The position numbers were made by a program, and so were the translations under genes. DNA of 64,000 nt from Eledone cirrhosa (Eukaryota): positions 46,438,001-46,502,000 of the forward strand of contig OZ024745.1 of the NCBI GenBank assembly GCA_964016885.1, read 5' to 3'. Under the pieces are notes generated by a model that was not told where the DNA came from, did not search any database, and saw nothing but the letters and a program-made list of their open reading frames with translations. Positions 2,506 to 22,834 of the stretch are shown in pieces; position 1 is the first letter of the stretch; each line of letters opens with the position of its first letter.

Positions 2506-4599
2506 TAGCAATTAAACGTTTGATATATGGAGATATATTAAGTACTTCATCCTCCACAGTACCTAATCAACAACTACTCTCCAGGTTTACTGACAGAAAT
2601 ATAGCACTTCAAGGGAATCATGTATAGGGACGCAAGTATGACAAAGTTTCATAAATATGAGGTCCTAAGTTCGGTCTCATTGTGTGGCATCTTGAGCATC
2701 ATTTACCAAAGTTTTCGGTTGACTCGAGCCATGCCGGTGAAATTAGATCGTCAAAGTGTGAAAACTTGTGGAAATCCGTAATTCAAAAGTTTGACCTTGT
2801 CACAGTGATATGGTTTGGGAATCACATAAGGGTAAAGTTGTTTGTCAAATACTCAATCACTTGCATGTCAATTCACAAGTCAGACACCCAGTTGATCAAA
2901 CAATTGCTTGCCCGTTATCAAAACTGACGAAGGATCCATTGTACATATATGCATATATACGTAATTATCCTTATTTTTTCTATGTTCTGGTGGTAGCCCT
3001 TATTTGTTAGTCTGTTAACAGTACCAAGCAGAGAAAGTTATTACAATGACTGCTCTAGTTTGAACACACACACTTCAGTCTTGTCATTTTGTGTGTGTGT
3101 GTGCAAATCCTTCACATTAAGATGGTATGACTTAATGTGAGGAAGTTAACTAGATATAATTACGGGATGAAAAATAGAAAACAAAAACATTAGTAATTTA
3201 ATATTTTAATTATTTTCGGTAAGTAAGGGAGACAACTCTGGACATATTTTTAACTTTGTAACATTTCAAAAATTAAACCAAAGAAAAGTATATAAGATAT
3301 ATTTCAGTTGTGGTCATGTATATATGTATATTATACATAGACATCGTGTATACTTTCATATACACTATTTTTAATCATGCTGTGTTAGTGTTACTGCTAA
3401 TTATAACCTAAAGCCATTTTTTCTTGAATTAAAAAATACAAGAAAGGGCCTGTTTATAGTTAGGTACACAGTGCTGAAACCACAATTGTAAATTTGTGGT
3501 ATATAAACTCATCCAGTTGACTCAGGAATTAATGAACAACCAGCATCTCGTCATCTGATGTCTCTGTAACTCCAGTTGATATGTCCCTTGCTCAAGGATA
3601 AACACAACACAATGGTGGCAATAAAATATAAAAATATCATGAGTTTAACAATTCAGTTTCATTTTATCATATGATGTACATAGCCTCAGTGGATAAAATA
3701 GATTAAACTTACAAATCTTTGGATGAACATTTTGTAGGTAGTAATTTAAGCGATGATGGTACAGAAAATTAAAATGAAGAAAGGCTTTAACTTTTGAACA
3801 CAGCATAAACTGTTTAATAATTTGCTGGTGGTGAGAGAAAAACCAATCACTATATTAACCAAGTTAACAGCAAAAATGTTGCACTCCATGCTTTGCAATA
3901 TTTAATTTTTAAAATTCAGAATCCACTTTGGATTTCATATCTCTGGCATTGATAAAATAAATACTAGTAATATAATCAGTGTTCATAAAGTATATTCACC
4001 TCTACAATGCTTGTTCTGGTTTGAATACCACTGTATGGCATTATTGGAAGTGTCTTTTGCTATAGTTTTGATTCAACATAGACTTTGTAAGTGAAATTGG
4101 GGAAATGGAAAATTGTGTGGAAGTCCATCAGATAGATTGTCCCTGTAATTCAAAGGTCCAGCTTTGTTATATATTGTACCTTTAATTCATGAGTCCAGCC
4201 TTATTAAATATTGTATTACACCAATTTATCTATAGAAGTGTATGTTCAAGCTAAATGTGTCTGCAAAATAATACAGTTCATTGAAACAGATGAGGATCCA
4301 TCATACATCTCTGCTTCAAAAACTGGTCTTGTGTCATCATTATATAACGTTTGCTTTTCTAGCAAGAGTTGAACTACTGTGTTTAAGTAAGAATACAATA
4401 ATTTTATTTAGCTTGCTCAATTGGGATTAATTATTTAACACGGAGGTATCTTTCAAAGAATGATTAACTCCACTTATCTTCAGGACAAGAAATAAAAATT
4501 AAGATATTGTTTGCCTTTTACAAGGTTATTAGTGAACTAAGTAAAGTGAAATAGCTGCAATAAGGAGTGAAAGTCAAGCTGTGCACTTGATTCTCTGGG

Positions 4600-5344: not shown

Positions 5345-6045
5345 TACTAATAATAATTGTTTCTACGTTAGGCACAAGGCCAGCAATTACCCAGTGCATT
5401 ACTGGTACTTTATTTTATCGACCCCGTAAGGATGAAAGGCAAAGTCAACCTCGGCGGGATTTGAACTCAGATCGTAAAGGGACGTAACTATGCTGGAAAG
5501 CATGGCGTCCAACCCTCTACCGATACTGCCAATCCACGTTTCTACTAATAATAATAATGGTTTTTTTTATATAGGCACAAGGCCAACAATTTTGGGGGAG
5601 GGGAAAGTCGATTAAATCGACCCCAGTGCGTGACTGGTACTTTATTTTATCGACCCCGTAAGGATGAAAGGCAAAGCTAACCTAAGTGGGATTTGAACTC
5701 AGAACATAAAGGGCTATAACTCTATGCTGCAAAGCTTGTCTGACACTCTACAGATATTGACAATCCACCACCCTAATACTACTAATAATGGTTTCTGATT
5801 TAGCCACAAGGCCAACAATTTTGTGGGGAGGCAAAAGTTGATTAAATCGACCCCAGAGCATTACTGGTACTTTATTTTATCGACCCTGTGATGATAAAAG
5901 CAAAGCTAACCTCGACCTGATTTGAACTCAGAATGAAAATGGCCATAACTCTATACCACAAATCATTTCCAATGCTCTGCCATTACTGCTAACCACCGCC
6001 TTCAGCATTTTTAATAATAATGATTTCTTTATTAGCCACAAAGGC
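5345..6045 (-). mobile_element. Head-to-tail array of three tRNA-derived SINE copies
   Basis: Three ~200-bp units with a B-box (GAGTTCAAATCCC), the core GCCTTTCATCCTTACGGGGTCGATAAAATAAAGTACCAG and a (TTA/TAG)n tail. Confidence 0.85.
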
Positions 6046-7659: not shown

Positions 7660-10075
7660 CATCATCATCATCATCACCGTTTTACATCCGTTCTTCCACG
7701 CTAGCATGGGTTAGACGGGTTGTCCTGTTGTGGGCAGTGTATGGTCGGCTGACCATGCTCATACAGGAACTGATTTGGTTTGATTTCTACAGCTGGATGC
7801 CCTTCCTAACACCAACCTCATTTACAGTGAGTGCTGGGTGCTTTTTCATGGCGCCTACACGTCCACTTTACAGTGTGGGCTGGGTGCTTTTTTGCCATGG
7901 CACCTCCACGACCACCTTGCAGTGGGGGGTGTGGGGGCATATTGCCTATATGCTTCAGCTTGTACCCATGGGAGGTCGGGTACTCTGTATTACTGCGTGA
8001 CGCCAGAGGTCACGGTCATGTGTCATCGCCTTTGAGAGGTGTAATTGGGTAAGGTCGGCTTTTATCACCTCATCCCAGGTCATCTTGGGTCTCCCCACTC
8101 CGCGGTTTCCATCGACTTCTAGTGCTCTGCACCTTTTTATGCAGCTGTCATCCTTCATACGCATCACATATCCATACCAACGCAACCGCCTCTCCTGCAC
8201 ACAGCATTTGATTCCTCTTATGCTCAGTCTCTCTCTCAATTCATTTATGTTTTGTCGTTCGTGTATATTACTATTACACATCCATCAGAGCATGCAGGCT
8301 TCGTTTCTCTCTAATCTACGTAAGTCATCCACCTTCAGCGCCCAGGTCTCACTACCATGCAACATCGCTGTTCGGATACACACATCATACAGTCTGCCTT
8401 TCATTTTGAGGGAGAAGCCTTTTGCAGCTAGCAGTGGTAGTAGTTCCCTAAACTTCTTCCATCCCGGTCTTACCCTAATTATTGTACTTTCTGAACACCC
8501 ACCTCCGCTGCTAATTCGATCACCTAGGTAGCAGAAGCTGTCTACTGTTTCTACAGAGCCCTCCCAGAGATTGGTGGTACTTGTTTCCTGTGGCTGTTTG
8601 CTGCTTGCTGTCCCTGCACAGCTGCTGCATGTGAAGCCTACATTCTTAATTAAGCTTCCTGAGATCCCACTACATCTCTTGTGTACCCATTGTTTGCATT
8701 TGGGGCAGAGAATGGAGTTCCTACCTACACCTTTCCTACATACTGAGCAAGGCCATTTCCTTGAGGGGATCTGGATTCTGTTTTCTCGTCTACTTACAAG
8801 GACCTTAGTCTCTGTCATGTTGACTTTGAGACCCTTTCTTTCTAGTCCCTGCTTCCAAATTTTGAATTTCTTCTCTAGTTCTACCATAGATTCAGCTATA
8901 AGTGCGAGGTCATCAGCATACAGGAGTTCCCATGGGCATCCGGTCTTAAACTCCTCCGTTATTGCCTGCAGGACTATGATGAATAGAAGAGGGCTAAGAA
9001 CAGAGCCCTGGTGGACCCCAACCTGTACGCTAAATTCCTCGCTATACTCATTGTTAATCCTAACTTTGTTGACTGCTCCCCTATACATGGCTTGTACCGC
9101 TTTCACAAGCCATTCATCTACTCCTAGTTTTCTAAGAGCCCACCAGATTACAGCACGTGGAACTCTGTCAAAGGCTTTCTCAAGGTCGACAAATGCCAGG
9201 TAGAGTGGCTTACTTTTAGCTAGGTACTTTTCCTGTAACTGCCTGACAAAGAAGAGGGCATCAGTGGTGCCTCTTCCTGGCACAAACCCAAATTGCATCC
9301 ACCTAGTTCCACCCGGTCCCTAATCAACTGTGCTATAACTCTTTCTGTTACTTTCATGACCTGGTCCATCAGCTTTATACCTCTATAGTTTCCTCTATCT
9401 AGTGCATCACCTTTACCTTTGTAGCAGTTGACAATGATGCTACTGCACCAATCTTTTGGTATGACACCTAGTATTACCTGGTTAACAATACGTGTGGTTA
9501 TAGTGTGACCTACAGACCCAGATGCCTTCAGCATCTCGGCAGCTATAGCCGATGGACCGGTTGCCTTCCCCATCTTCATATCTTTGATTGCCTTACTTAC
9601 TACGCTGCTGCTGACTTGTACTGCTAGCCCCTCTATAGGGTCTACTTGGGGTAGGGTCTCTTCTTCCCATGCATTCTCCTCATTTAGTAATCTATCATAA
9701 TGACTCTTCCATGCATCTTTCTTCTCAGCACTTGTGAGGGCAAGTTCACCTTTATCATTCCGGATACACTTCTCTCCAATGACATCACAATTCTCTCCAA
9801 TGACATCACAATTCTCTCCGACACACTGCCTCGCAATCTTGAACACCTCCTGTTTCTGGTCCTCATGTTGCAAAACATGCTTGAATTTTCTATCCTCTGC
9901 TTCCCTCTAAGTATACTTGTCGCCTAGCTTCCCTCTATGTAATGTACCCTGCTCCCCCCGTTCTTCCATTCTTTCCATGCCTGTCTCTTGGCCTTAACTG
10001 CCTCATCTACCTTATTGTTCCACCATCAAGTCACTCTCCTCCTGCTTGTGGTCTTACTCCAGCCACAGACCTATT
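7660..10075 (-). mobile_element. 5'-truncated RTE-clade LINE (reverse transcriptase) with frameshifts
   Basis: Consecutive ORFs 9220-9873, 8285-9298 and 7955-8281 carry NYRGIKL, QFGF, FVDLEKAFDRV, GVHQGSVLSPLLF, YADD, a PHD-like Cys cluster, GSETW and RLRWYG. Followed by a GGTTGGTGTTAGGAAGGGCATCCAGC 3' motif and a (GAT)n tail at 7660-7677. Confidence 0.95.
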
Positions 10076-15098: not shown

Positions 15099-15206
15099 AG
15101 TTATTTCCTGCATTCAAGATTATGTACATTTTCTAAGCCTATATATATATATAGAGAGAGAGTCACAATAAGGCAGCAGATTTGCAGCTTGTTATGAAAC
15201 TTTACT

Positions 15207-15294
15207 GCATATTACAACTGTTTCAATATCGATCAGCTCGGGTTTGATCAGGCGATCGAATCCCAACTCTTAACCGACACCTCTTCAGATATGC
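15207..15294 (-). ncRNA. Type I hammerhead ribozyme (Penelope/retrozyme type)
   Basis: Minus strand reads GCATAT-CTGAAGA-[long stem II GGTGTCGGTTA...TGATCGATATT]-GAAA-CAGTTG-TA-ATATGC. Perfect 6-bp stem I, complete core, GUA cleavage triplet. Confidence 0.8.
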
Positions 15295-15471
15295 GAGTTT
15301 ACATGGGTGGTCCCACCCAAACTGTTTGGCTTCTTATGGTCACTCTATATATACACTCTGCAAACTACAACTGTCTTAAACCTGGAGCACAACCCAATGA
15401 GAGACGAACCTCATAACATTGAGTGCTTTGACCAGCATCGTCGCTAGTAATCACAAGTTACTCACATAATA

Positions 15472-15512
<41 letters not shown>

Positions 15513-16083: not shown

Positions 16084-17148
16084 TTAGAAAGTAATTGATT
16101 GAAGATTTTTTCTACATAATAACTCTACATCTTTCAAACAGATGTATTTTTGAATGATTTTAGGAATAGCTTGTGGAAACTTCTTGAAGGATATACTTAC
16201 AGAACATGTGAGTGTTCTACGGTAGGCACAGCGACAAAGATGATGCAGAGAAGGGACAGTTTTAGAAGTTGTTACACACCAGTTGCTGAGATGAGGATCC
16301 ACTCTACAGATATAGTCAATATACTGGGGTGACCAATGCCAACCAGAAGCAGTGGCATATACTGCTAGTTTCTTAGACACAAGCAATTTGTTTTGTTTAT
16401 CATGCCAATGTGATTCCAAGTAATATTTCATAGAATTTACAATTGGTATCAGTTCAGAACCATTACTTTCACATAGTAGCTTGATGGTAAATTTGGAAAG
16501 TGTTATAAATATGTTATCCATTGGACCTTCAAAGACTGGTTGGTGTCGATGTAGCTGCAAGAGAAGAAGCTCATGGAACTTGCATGACATACAATACTTT
16601 ATTGCCACTTCAGAAAGCTGGTTAATAAAGTCAGTGTTTCCATATTTTAAAGCAGTTCTTACCACATACAACATGGCATCTTTGCAAATGGGGTCAAAAC
16701 TAGTTGACATAAGAATTTTGATGATTTCCCAATAGTTCACATTATCTTCAAGTTCTGTACACTGATTGTAGGCATTGATTAGTGCAATATCAAAAGTAGA
16801 ACAGTTTTTTATATTCAGTTTATTCCTATCACAAGATGGTTGATTAATGAGTTTTTTCACCTGATTAGTGTGTCCCAAACGAACAGCTAATATTAATGCT
16901 GTTTCCTTGTTATCATTCAGTGGAATGTTCAAGTCAATATTGGTATCCATCAGTTGCTGTAATACACTGCAATCATCCTGCATGATAGCTTGTCGTAGAT
17001 TAGCTGTTGCTTGGTCAGATGAGATGTGTTGCTCGTGGTTATTGTTTAAATTCTTCTGTTCCTTCCAAGGAGGCTCACTTGGGAGTGTGTATGGTGTTAA
17101 TATATGCTTTGGAACACAACTGTACCACTGAGATGTGTTATTTCCCAT
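16084..17148 (-). CDS. Ankyrin repeat and SOCS box protein (ASB-like), predicted N-myristoylated
   Basis: 354-aa ORF with ankyrin repeats (LRQAIMQDD, ETALILAVRLGHTNQVKKLI), a C-terminal SOCS box (VPSLHHLCRCAYRRTL...IPKIIQKYI) and N-terminal MGNNTS. A polypyrimidine/AG acceptor lies at 17180, just upstream of the ATG. Confidence 0.85.
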   Translation of the reverse strand: MGNNTSQWYSCVPKHILTPYTLPSEPPWKEQKNLNNNHEQHISSDQATANLRQAIMQDDCSVLQQLMDTNIDLNIPLNDNKETALILAVRLGHTNQVKKLINQPSCDRNKLNIKNCSTFDIALINAYNQCTELEDNVNYWEIIKILMSTSFDPICKDAMLYVVRTALKYGNTDFINQLSEVAIKYCMSCKFHELLLLQLHRHQPVFEGPMDNIFITLSKFTIKLLCESNGSELIPIVNSMKYYLESHWHDKQNKLLVSKKLAVYATASGWHWSPQYIDYICRVDPHLSNWCVTTSKTVPSLHHLCRCAYRRTLTCSVSISFKKFPQAIPKIIQKYICLKDVELLCRKNLQSITF

Positions 17149-17881
17149 GATCCTCAGCTGTCCTTTGATTATGGTTTGCCTAGAATGTAAATCAGTGATT
17201 TACAAAAGTCATAACATGCAAAAAAAGAAAAGAAAAAATGAATGTAAAATTCTTTCAAAATTACTGAGTAATTATTATGAAATTAATATATGAAAAAATT
17301 ATTTTATTTATCAAAACTAGTTAAGAAAATACAGAAGGATAATATAATTTTCAAAGTATTTTTAACACTATTTATAATAATATTATTAAAAATATATAGC
17401 AAAGAAAAATATATCTCCTTTTAGATGTACAAATTATTATTATATATTAGTTAGATAGTAACATATAATCCCTCAGCAAGATTGGATAGAATTAAATTTT
17501 ATAACTTTTGAAAGAAAATTAGTAGGGAAAAGAAAATAACCTTAAAAAAAAGTCAAACACAGGAAGAAAGGAAATATAAAGTTTTAATAGCAAATATTAT
17601 TGTTGAAGCGAAGCAGATAACACTACAACAGACTTAGAATACAACAACAAACATCGACGTCTCTAAGAGGGAAATAAAATAACGAGAAAACTAACAAAAA
17701 AAAAAATCAAATTTTTGGTTAGTAAACAACAATAAGAGGATATGACTGGGTTCTGTTAATACGAAATTTATATAAACAATTTTTCAACGAAGCATTCACG
17801 CCGGGATTTTGTAAATAATAAATCTGTTTTTGTTTAAATATATCTGTGATCGACAGCTTTCCTCCGTTTCAGCATAGGCAG

Positions 17882-20520: not shown

Positions 20521-21240
20521 TGATCACCATCTGATTACCTGATACTTGAGATTACCTAAGGCACCACACACACGCACAAAAAAGAAAAGGTATAAGTATT
20601 CTCTGAAGAAATCCCTTCAAGTGAATCACATTGACTATCACCAATAGGCTGATGTGGCCTCTGATTGTATGATCTGGTGACACATCTTTCACCAATCTTC
20701 ATTCGAAATTGCTCGTTAGGCTGATGTTGAGGAAAAAAGGATTCGGAGGAAGACACAACAACAACACCAACCCCAGAACAGGTCTGAATTTTCTATATTT
20801 GTCTCACCGGCCACCAGTGACCCTGCTATACATGTAGTCAGACCCCTTTATAAATCTTTGTTAGCGTGACCAAGCCATGATATAAATATATATTGAAACT
20901 ATAAGAATTTCCAGAAGTTAACTGAAGAGAAGGGACCGTTCACCCCCCCCCCCCCCCCGTTATATTTGCCTTGTGTGAACCCTTTTTTTATTCCTATTTG
21001 ACATGGTCTTAGCTACGCAGGTCTTTTAAAGTATTGTCATCATCACCATTTAACATCTATTTTCCACTCTAGCATGGGTCAGACGAGCTATCCCATTGTG
21101 AAACACGCCAGGTCGGATGACTGTGTTTTGCTCATACAGGACTGGTTTTAGCTTGGTTTCTACGGCTGGACGACCCTCCTAACACCAACCACATTTACAG
21201 TGTGTGCTGAGTGCTTTTTGTCATGACACCTACACGACCG

Positions 21241-21275
<35 letters not shown>

Positions 21276-21390
21276 AATTTGTTCATGTCTCAATCTTAAG
21301 GTATATAAATATTGAGTTTTGTCCTATATTATTCACTGCCATGACTGAATTTTAACCATCTACTTAGTCAAGGTATGTCAAGCATCATCT

Positions 21391-21457
21391 TATTTTATCT
21401 GATGAGGACGTACTGTTGAAGATAGCTCAGTACCTCTGAAATATGTATAATAAAATA
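21391..21457 (+). ncRNA. Type I hammerhead ribozyme (Penelope/retrozyme type)
   Basis: TATTTTAT-CTGATGA-GGACGTACTG/CAGTACCTCT-GAAA-TATGTA-TA-ATAAAATA. Perfect 8-bp stem I, 9 of 10 pairs in stem II, complete core, AUA cleavage triplet. Confidence 0.82.
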
Positions 21458-21582
21458 TACTTGATCACACGAATGTTCTATATTTGTTAATATTTTGAAT
21501 TAATATTAATAACTCTGGAAAACCATAACTGTGGAGTGCTTCTAATCTATTGTAAAACTTTATTCATTGAACCTTGTTTAAC

Positions 21583-21646
<64 letters not shown>

Positions 21647-22137: not shown

Positions 22138-22315
22138 AATTGTTTCTACTTTTGGCACAAGGCCAGCAATTATTCCAGTGTATTACTGGTACTTTATTTT
22201 ATCGACCACGTAAGGATGAAAGGTAAAGTTAACCTCGGCGAGATTTGAACTCAGTCCGTAAAGGGACGTAACTATGCTGCAAAGCATAGCGTCCGACCCT
22301 CTACCGATACTGCCA
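22138..22315 (-). mobile_element. tRNA-derived SINE (same family as 5345-6045)
   Basis: Full ~175-bp match to the unit at 5358-5530. Confidence 0.85.
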
Positions 22316-22834
22316 AAGTCTCATGACAGTCCCCTAAAGCACCGCGCTCTGGATAGTTAACCTTTCAGAGATGTCATTCTTGATTTCTGTCTTTCTGGAA
22401 GTCATATAGCAACTCTCCTAGAATTTCGACCGTATGTGGCATATCATCATGAAATCGACTATGTCGAAAGCTTTTTCCAAGACAAGGCATACCACATTTA
22501 CATTTGGTTGGATGGCTAGCTACTTTCACACCCAGACATAATGCGGCATGGATAGTCTTGAGGCTCTTCTTGGCGCATCTACTCGATGATGCATTTAGCA
22601 TCGATGACTGCTTCAGTACGAGGTTTGAAATATTGACATGGATACCCAGAATTGAAAAAAATACAATACCAAAATCAGAATTTATGTGTCGCCTGGGAAT
22701 TGTAATGCATAATGCAAGAGGATGTCGATTATTTCATTCTATCTTTCTTGGAGTGTTCTGTTCTGCACTACATGCCATTGTACAAAGAGAACTAATGCAT
22801 GCGATACTAATCACATCTCCCTTTTAGATAAAAA

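Follow-up and report, generated by a model that had tools for sequence, protein, structure and literature searches.

A hammerhead-bearing sequence in a (TA)n tract of Eledone cirrhosa reads as the truncated end of a Hydra-clade Penelope-like element

A stretch of 64,000 nt from the Eledone cirrhosa genome (assembly GCA_964016885.1, contig OZ024745.1, positions 46,438,001 to 46,502,000), referred to here as the window, carries a type I hammerhead ribozyme motif within a short sequence enclosed by (TA)-rich tracts. The question raised by this locus is whether such a sequence is a mobile unit in its own right or a piece of a larger one, and by which route it came to its present position. The initial annotation of the window took it for a non-autonomous, self-cleaving retroelement monomer of ~314 bp, flanked on both sides by CTTT(AT)n as a target duplication. 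The copying of Penelope-like elements (PLEs) and the role of their hammerheads are open questions in the field, for which one in vitro study was found (PMC11167929).

With regard to the ribozyme itself, all the stems, the core, the loop, the cleavage position (H17) and the extended stem I that had been annotated were confirmed base by base (Table 1), as was the TATA-like TATATAAA upstream. Positions 10.1-11.1 and H17 follow hammerhead numbering. The motif presents the core CUGANGA and GAAA, an NUH site, stems I and II and an open stem I, as found in type I hammerheads, with stem II being closed at 10.1-11.1 by a G-U rather than a G-C pair. The self-duplex of the palindromic stem III is predicted at only -2.2 kcal/mol, and in the extended stem I the single common variant (A vs G) keeps pairing, 19 of 84 copies being one-sided. 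A descriptor scan of the 64 kb returned two motifs, this one and a weaker one on the minus strand (core start 15288), while 60 local shuffles gave 0.083 descriptor matches each and none with a stem I of at least 8 bp. The Rfam hammerhead models, which test for a library match rather than for biochemical activity, gave no match at E<=1 over 5 kb or at E<=10 over 161 nt, for which reason the identification rests on the descriptor and on the evidence from the family described below. Since Rfam misses this motif, and two more in this genome came to light only through the descriptor or on visual inspection, such hammerheads are likely under-annotated.

Table 1. Coordinates of the element, its ribozyme and its flanks in the window
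Feature	Position	Strand	Basis or remark
Left (TA)n tract, insertion target	21244..21272	.	(TA)n after the 3' end in 96/99 sampled copies
Putative 5'-truncated 3' end (pseudo-LTR + tail) of a ~4.6-kb Hydra-clade PLE	21273..21586	+	copy comparison
TATA box, putative promoter	21302..21309	+	TATATAAA; 33 nt from box start to 5'-end pile-up
Initiator-like TCACT, putative transcription start A21335	21333..21337	+	351 genomic matches with non-template preceding base
Extended stem I, 5' arm	21368..21376, pairs with 21457-21464	+	A21457 common to both stem I parts
Type I hammerhead motif	21391..21457	+	descriptor search; core intact in 38/45 copies not motif-selected
Stem I	21391-98/21450-57	+	8 bp
Hammerhead core	CTGATGA 21399-405 and GAAA 21438-41	+	base-by-base check
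Stem II	21406-15/21428-37	+	9/10 pairs, C-C mismatch, 12-nt loop
Palindromic stem III	21441-48	+	self-complementary ATATGTAT, 8 nt
Predicted cleavage site	after A21449 (H17)	+	hammerhead descriptor position
End site B, tailless 3' end, putative second RT start	21502..21506	+	68/99 sampled copies end here, then (TA)n
Tail between sites B and A	21507..21586	+	94 nt in reference copy L071
Hypervariable patch	21525..21530	+	TAAC at 21526-29 in the window copy
End site A, AACCTTT, element 3' terminus	21580..21586	+	tandem copies continue into ORF 5' leader
Right (TA)18(AG)13 tract	21586..21646	.	sequence

The expectation that the element is multi-copy was borne out by 1,949 exact genomic matches to its 23-nt core motif (control 0), the family comprising about 2,000 or more copies. 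When the 314 bp were used as query against the 3.0-Gb genome, 41 scored matches of 91-100% identity were obtained from the best 40 of 3,432 candidates, the closest other copy among the matches listed (L002) being 97% identical. Among the 30 closest loci the 3' end is the same, AACCTT(TAA) before (TA)n, but the upstream extent varies (in five of them reaching beyond the 1.5 kb of flank examined), so that ~314 bp is not the size of the element. Nearly every full-length 3' end in these loci finishes in AACCTT(T), meaning that the right CTTT is part of the element, and the left CTTT lies at the end of a different high-depth repeat; the proposed target-site duplication is accordingly rejected.

What lies upstream in longer copies was examined by extending eight loci. 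Coding sequence was present on the same strand in seven (in L035 as a weak 35% match), the eighth (L036) being truncated before the ORF, and the linkage to an RT/GIY-YIG reading frame that the annotation had suggested looking for was thereby established. When the RT region served as query, 40 matches were scored from 2,679 candidates and a 750-aa open frame, P0001, was obtained; ten loci from this search were extended for unit structure. In L070-L073 the ORF has a hammerhead piece on either side, the two being 4.55-4.7 kb apart, and the passage into the ORF leader falls at a fixed point. The same 3' sequence therefore ends a ~4.6-kb unit coding for RT and GIY-YIG, with varying 5' ends, which runs against the notion of a non-autonomous monomer; the window copy is a single tail-bearing arm of this kind, its partner arm being absent within the window.

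A retrozyme-like origin, in which a non-autonomous monomer of ~314 bp would cleave itself, form circles and spread as an independent unit, was weighed at this point. The sequence shares with non-LTR retrozymes a type I hammerhead, AT-richness, a length of a few hundred bases and kinship with PLE terminal repeats (PMC7229834; bioRxiv 10.64898/2026.07.22.740005), and its 314 bp fall within the 150-450 bp of their repeats (PMC7229834). Moreover, short copies of 170-260 nt running from start site to end are frequent, 27 of the 99 sampled copies having their 5' end between -75 and -55, and the window copy keeps the TATA box and could thus be transcribed. However, non-LTR retrozymes are tandem and non-coding, whereas the present sequence belongs to a coding element and occurs in dispersed copies truncated to differing extents: neither 150-450-bp head-to-tail repeats nor a fixed-length non-coding unit was found, the search for arrays of the short monomer that the annotation had recommended being negative in all 86 position-sampled loci. 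A tandem array was seen only in L076, where the units have no hammerhead core and are interleaved with TTAGGG repeats. In addition, a single hammerhead cannot excise a monomer, copies derived from transcripts would be expected to lose the TATA box, and the 5' ends are variable and linked to the ORF. This origin is largely refuted and must be considered highly improbable.

The identity of the parent element was approached through its protein. P0001 shows DKT, YRDD, a VY...YIG nuclease motif and a terminal CxH, with RW[R], CxCx5C and CxxC being intact in other copies: RVRWRAF occurs in L049 and L073, KSDKTNN is present, and CNCRNRSNC, CNLC and CLH are found in several copies, P0001 itself being without two of these cysteines. 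Relatives carry RWK, here changed to RWR, and no CCHH motif was seen when the protein was inspected by eye. The single ORF is ordered with RT first and GIY-YIG at the C-terminus, and 189 full-length relatives were recovered at E<=1e-10 (31-40% identity among those listed). A Pfam scan of P0001 found neither RT nor GIY-YIG, and of three relatives scanned only P0043 matched RVT_1, with a score that did not reach the curated cutoff; a profile search of the PDB was empty. The Hydra clade of PLEs is defined by RW[K/R], DKT in place of DKG, a CxCx5C linker, CxxC and CxH around the conserved E and N, the lack of a CCHH motif, (TA)n targeting and 3' hammerheads (PMC8557442). Like its members, the present element combines a single RT then GIY-YIG ORF, a type I 3' hammerhead with palindromic stem III, a (TA)n target and both tandem and inverted insertions (PMC8557442); (TA)n insertion at 96 of 99 3' ends, pseudo-LTR tandems, inverted arms and a tail at one end were all observed. 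On these motifs and on comparison by eye, the window sequence appears to be the 5'-truncated end of a Hydra-clade PLE, and the initial annotation was correct in recognising a PLE pseudo-LTR hammerhead of type I with a short palindromic stem III, a ribozyme that is ordinary in kind, being an expected part of Hydra-clade elements. A Naiad affiliation, which the (TA)n target had suggested, was rejected because the nuclease is C-terminal.

Within the clade, the octopus member Hydra-1_Obim (2,507 bp; PMC8557442) has a clearly homologous protein start and a different hammerhead, and identity with it was rejected since hammerhead and protein differ by eye; on this comparison the element would be a new family of a known clade. 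Apart from Craig et al. 2021 (PMC8557442), no publication on cephalopod Hydra-type GIY-YIG PLEs was found in the openly accessible literature. The family departs from the Hydra elements listed in the available part of PMC8557442 (1.1-3.0 kb, tail of 30-40) in its ~4.6 kb and 94-nt tail, in having RWR in place of RWK, and in a hypervariable patch without counterpart in that part of the source. The clade tends to be generally <3 kb; the ORF is here of normal size, the excess of the 4.55-4.7-kb unit being non-coding and lying in ~2 kb of 3' sequence, in which an old duplication of ~530 bp is contained. The repeats of this direct duplication (L033:6372-7474 and relatives) are 67-77% identical.

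How copies of the family end was studied on contig 1, in the loci that contain its first 100 motif matches (minus one); with two overlaps removed, these gave 86 loci and 99 copies. Selection was by an exact motif lying 5' of the cleavage site, which makes the sample blind to copies starting beyond that site. Two 3' ends predominate, with 68 copies terminating at site B (~21504) and 28 at site A (~21586), one running into the ORF and two being unclassified, and (TA)n follows all 68 B and 28 A ends. When arms are arranged head to head, the pairing is nearly strict: 45 of 50 pairs are A+B, none is A+A or B+B, and five have one other end (L096/L097 being one duplicated insertion among the 50). The arms of one insertion differ at a mean of 3.9 positions (n=17), against 7.2 between insertions (n=136). 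Template ATAT follows both sites, B lying within the 3' arm of a predicted hairpin, and this tetranucleotide, which matches the (TA)n target, could pair with a nicked (TA)n primer. The window tail is shorter than 94 nt because of a 12-nt indel common to L002, L003, L005 and L009. In the PLEs described in the available text of PMC8557442 and PMC3846280 the tail is likewise at one end only, with 30-40 bp.

The closest experimental parallel is Poseidon PAc from the lizard Anolis carolinensis (Frangieh et al. 2024), for which two internal RT starts, extension of both strands, an uncleaved template and a protein-assisted hammerhead are reported in vitro (PMC11167929). As in the present family, two 3' ends define a tail, and extension of both target strands on uncleaved RNA corresponds to what is proposed here (PMC11167929). 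PAc, however, is of another clade and starts inside its ORF without target homology, while both sites lie here upstream of the ORF with ATAT matching (TA)n, and the near-strict one-of-each pairing is a count made in genomic copies.

The 5' ends provide the complementary information. In the sample they pile up 64 nt before the core, nine of 99 exactly there, at the A of TCACT, and the TATA-like box noted in the annotation sits where a promoter would be expected, 33 nt before the pile-up. Throughout the genome, 351 matches have a non-template base just before the start-site A, compared with 59 at H17; on inspection, 29 of 30 of the former were junctions, with one looking continuous by eye, and about 8 of 30 of the latter were by eye junctions at the cleavage site. 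About 340-350 copies thus start at one base by the TATA box and cross the cleavage site intact, which makes uncleaved transcripts the likely templates, although some cleaved RNA may be copied as well, given the eight or so cleavage-site junctions. The base preceding the start site was G in 44, T in 48 and A in 8 of the first 100 matches listed (hand count), and of the 12 G among the 30 inspected start junctions about half can derive from the partner arm, so that an extra cap-derived G is only partly supported. The TATA and TCACT layout is known from a rotifer PLE (PMC3846280), and no publication was found in the openly accessible literature on an untemplated cap base with twin priming at Penelope-like pLTRs.

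These 5' ends bear on a second possibility, which accepts the same parent but supposes that hammerhead cleavage belongs to the copying cycle and, by cutting in two successive terminal repeats, frees a unit-length RNA, that this RNA is circularised, and that RT running round the circle generates partial tandems. The tandem junction is indeed seamless and fixed, and a few copies begin at the cleavage site. Yet a circle has no 5' end, while about 340 copies stop at the putative start upstream of the cleavage site, and insertion of the lizard PLE was unaffected by hammerhead mutants (PMC11167929). Together with the folding predictions given below, this leaves the circular route unlikely.

Insertion by twin priming on uncleaved RNA would instead proceed as follows. 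Transcription would start at A21335, the RT-nuclease would nick both strands of (TA)n, and cDNA would be primed from two internal RNA sites, B (~21504) and A (~21586), each with its ATAT match. The cDNAs would stop at the RNA 5' end or continue into a tandem unit. Joining would follow, either of two cDNAs head to head or of a cDNA to the target. On this scheme the window copy is a lone A-type arm whose synthesis ended some 60 nt upstream of the start site, and the reverse transcriptase-nuclease that likely placed it in (TA)n is that of the family itself. Cleavage by the hammerhead would require a dimer or assistance from protein, and would serve processing or control rather than the copying itself. 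Taken as a whole, the explanation by a Hydra-clade PLE end inserted into (TA)n by its own RT-nuclease from uncleaved templates is very probably right. Thousands of copies, 91-97% alike, would then record insertion steps in the genome, namely the use of two fixed ends, one per arm, the stopping of cDNA at the likely cap site and the read-through of uncleaved ribozyme.

At 21449-21488 of the window, the cleavage site and stem I are overlapped by an AATAAA, after which come CA and a T/GT-rich run, as in the layout of a polyadenylation site. Were this layout used in the 3' repeat, neither end site would exist outside the 5' leader, and a template jump would be required to make long copies.

The extent to which the ribozyme is functional was addressed by folding and by variation among copies. 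The hammerhead fold is predicted 2-9 kcal/mol above the minimum-energy fold, stem I has a predicted probability <0.5 in 49 of 49 folded leaders, and an upstream CATCA can pair with the core (predicted anti-core probability 0.04-0.64 by window, median 0.41 over 49 leaders); as a monomer, the hammerhead is thus predicted to be poorly formed. A double-hammerhead dimer is predicted to equal two monomers in energy (-23.2 kcal/mol), which would suit the circular route, but a non-hammerhead dimer lies lower (-27.0), and the low stem I probability speaks against that route. As regards variation, subfamily-level variants affect none of 38 unselected structured positions, compared with 16 of 164 others (Fisher p=0.03); this avoidance, which suggests constraint in the source lineage and would also suit the circular route, is a modest sign of selection. 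Stem covariation was uninformative, with one double change in 2,100 pair-by-copy cells, the 84 copies being too alike.

It could be argued from the same data that the family's hammerhead is a decayed relic whose cleavage has been lost, given the A/U-only stem I, the G-U closing pair, the C-C mismatch and 3-bp stem III, in addition to the unfavourable fold, the competing CATCA and the lack of an Rfam match. Against this stand the 55 structured positions (38 unselected) without subfamily-level change, when about 10% changed elsewhere. Non-standard closing pairs are common among Hydra hammerheads, many of those listed in the available part of PMC8557442 having U-U, G-U or similar at 10.1-11.1, and PLE hammerheads on their own are reported to cleave poorly in vitro (PMC4209133). 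Loss of cleavage is therefore decidedly unlikely, and by analogy with PMC4209133 and PMC11167929, dimeric or protein-assisted cleavage would be the likeliest mode of action.

Two-site insertion leaves one feature of the family unaccounted for, a hypervariable patch in the tail that offers a precise, testable site. Around 21526-29, 94 tails contain 66 different strings of 8-12 nt (a count that includes one flanking subfamily site), and on a tree of 84 copies built from other columns the four patch columns require 28, 28, 37 and 21 changes, where the median column requires 2. The patch differs in 12 of the 13 closest pairs, the agreeing pair being a duplicated locus, and the two tails of one insertion differ in L071, L073, L074 and L075 and agree in L072. 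Public contigs (library type not on record) also show alternative letters, with depth falling from ~70,000 to 7,000 at 21525-28, which makes an assembly artefact unlikely. Nor is the patch supported as a general Hydra trait, since it is absent in 10 tails of a second, younger Hydra-like family. No publication on hypervariable Penelope pLTR tails was found in the openly accessible literature.

As for its origin, a change at the time of copying is favoured by duplicated loci, which keep the patch in two of three comparisons (L096/L097; L071/L072 upstream), the third (L071/L072 downstream) differing and needing a conversion event on either reading. A later change in DNA is favoured by L076, where seven tandem units with shared private variants show five patches. 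When RT stops were considered, short tail arms were found to end across 4498-4554, not sharply at the patch. Error-prone copying at insertion is the favoured reading, at modest odds. The bolder proposal, that at nearly each copying RT rewrites ~4 bases at a fixed tail spot, some 20 nt from the second start site, in a programmed error-prone step, is tentative and somewhat more likely to be wrong than right. The errors would perhaps occur where the enzyme from the tail end meets a partner bound at the second site. If true, each insertion would receive a random tag which, with the one-of-each pairing, would be a record of an asymmetric two-enzyme insertion complex.

Some further observations concern other repeats and a nearby gene. 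The second hammerhead-like motif of the window lies on the minus strand between (TA)n tracts (15150-15483, core starting at 15288), with stem I GCATAT/ATATGC, CTGAAGA, a long stem II insert, GAAA, a palindromic stem III and a GTA site. Its family gave 47 scored matches (83-94%) among 1,291 candidates, most starting at query positions 74-88, and the repeat is likely the terminal repeat of another PLE. The second Hydra-like family (L037:7585-9260, L227-L256; 888 candidates) is very young (99% identical) and has (TA)n targets, a hammerhead stem II region spanning 90 nt and two 3' ends about 107 nt apart. In L076:8000-9800 (contig C184), seven tandem element pieces alternate with (TTAGGG)n on the same strand, upstream of an ORF; each begins 4 nt before the cleavage site and includes some 20 nt of the ORF leader. 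The insertion is flanked by other short repeats of high copy number (21150-21243 and 22140-22330), and more occur elsewhere in the window (5390-6004 and 7821-7928), the left flanking one reaching a summed contig depth >1e6 in one public run. Finally, the minus strand carries, at a distance of about 4 kb from the element, an ASB-like gene (16087-17199), a 371-aa open frame in which ankyrin repeats (Ank_2, E=2.6e-6) are accompanied by a weak SOCS box (E=0.002).
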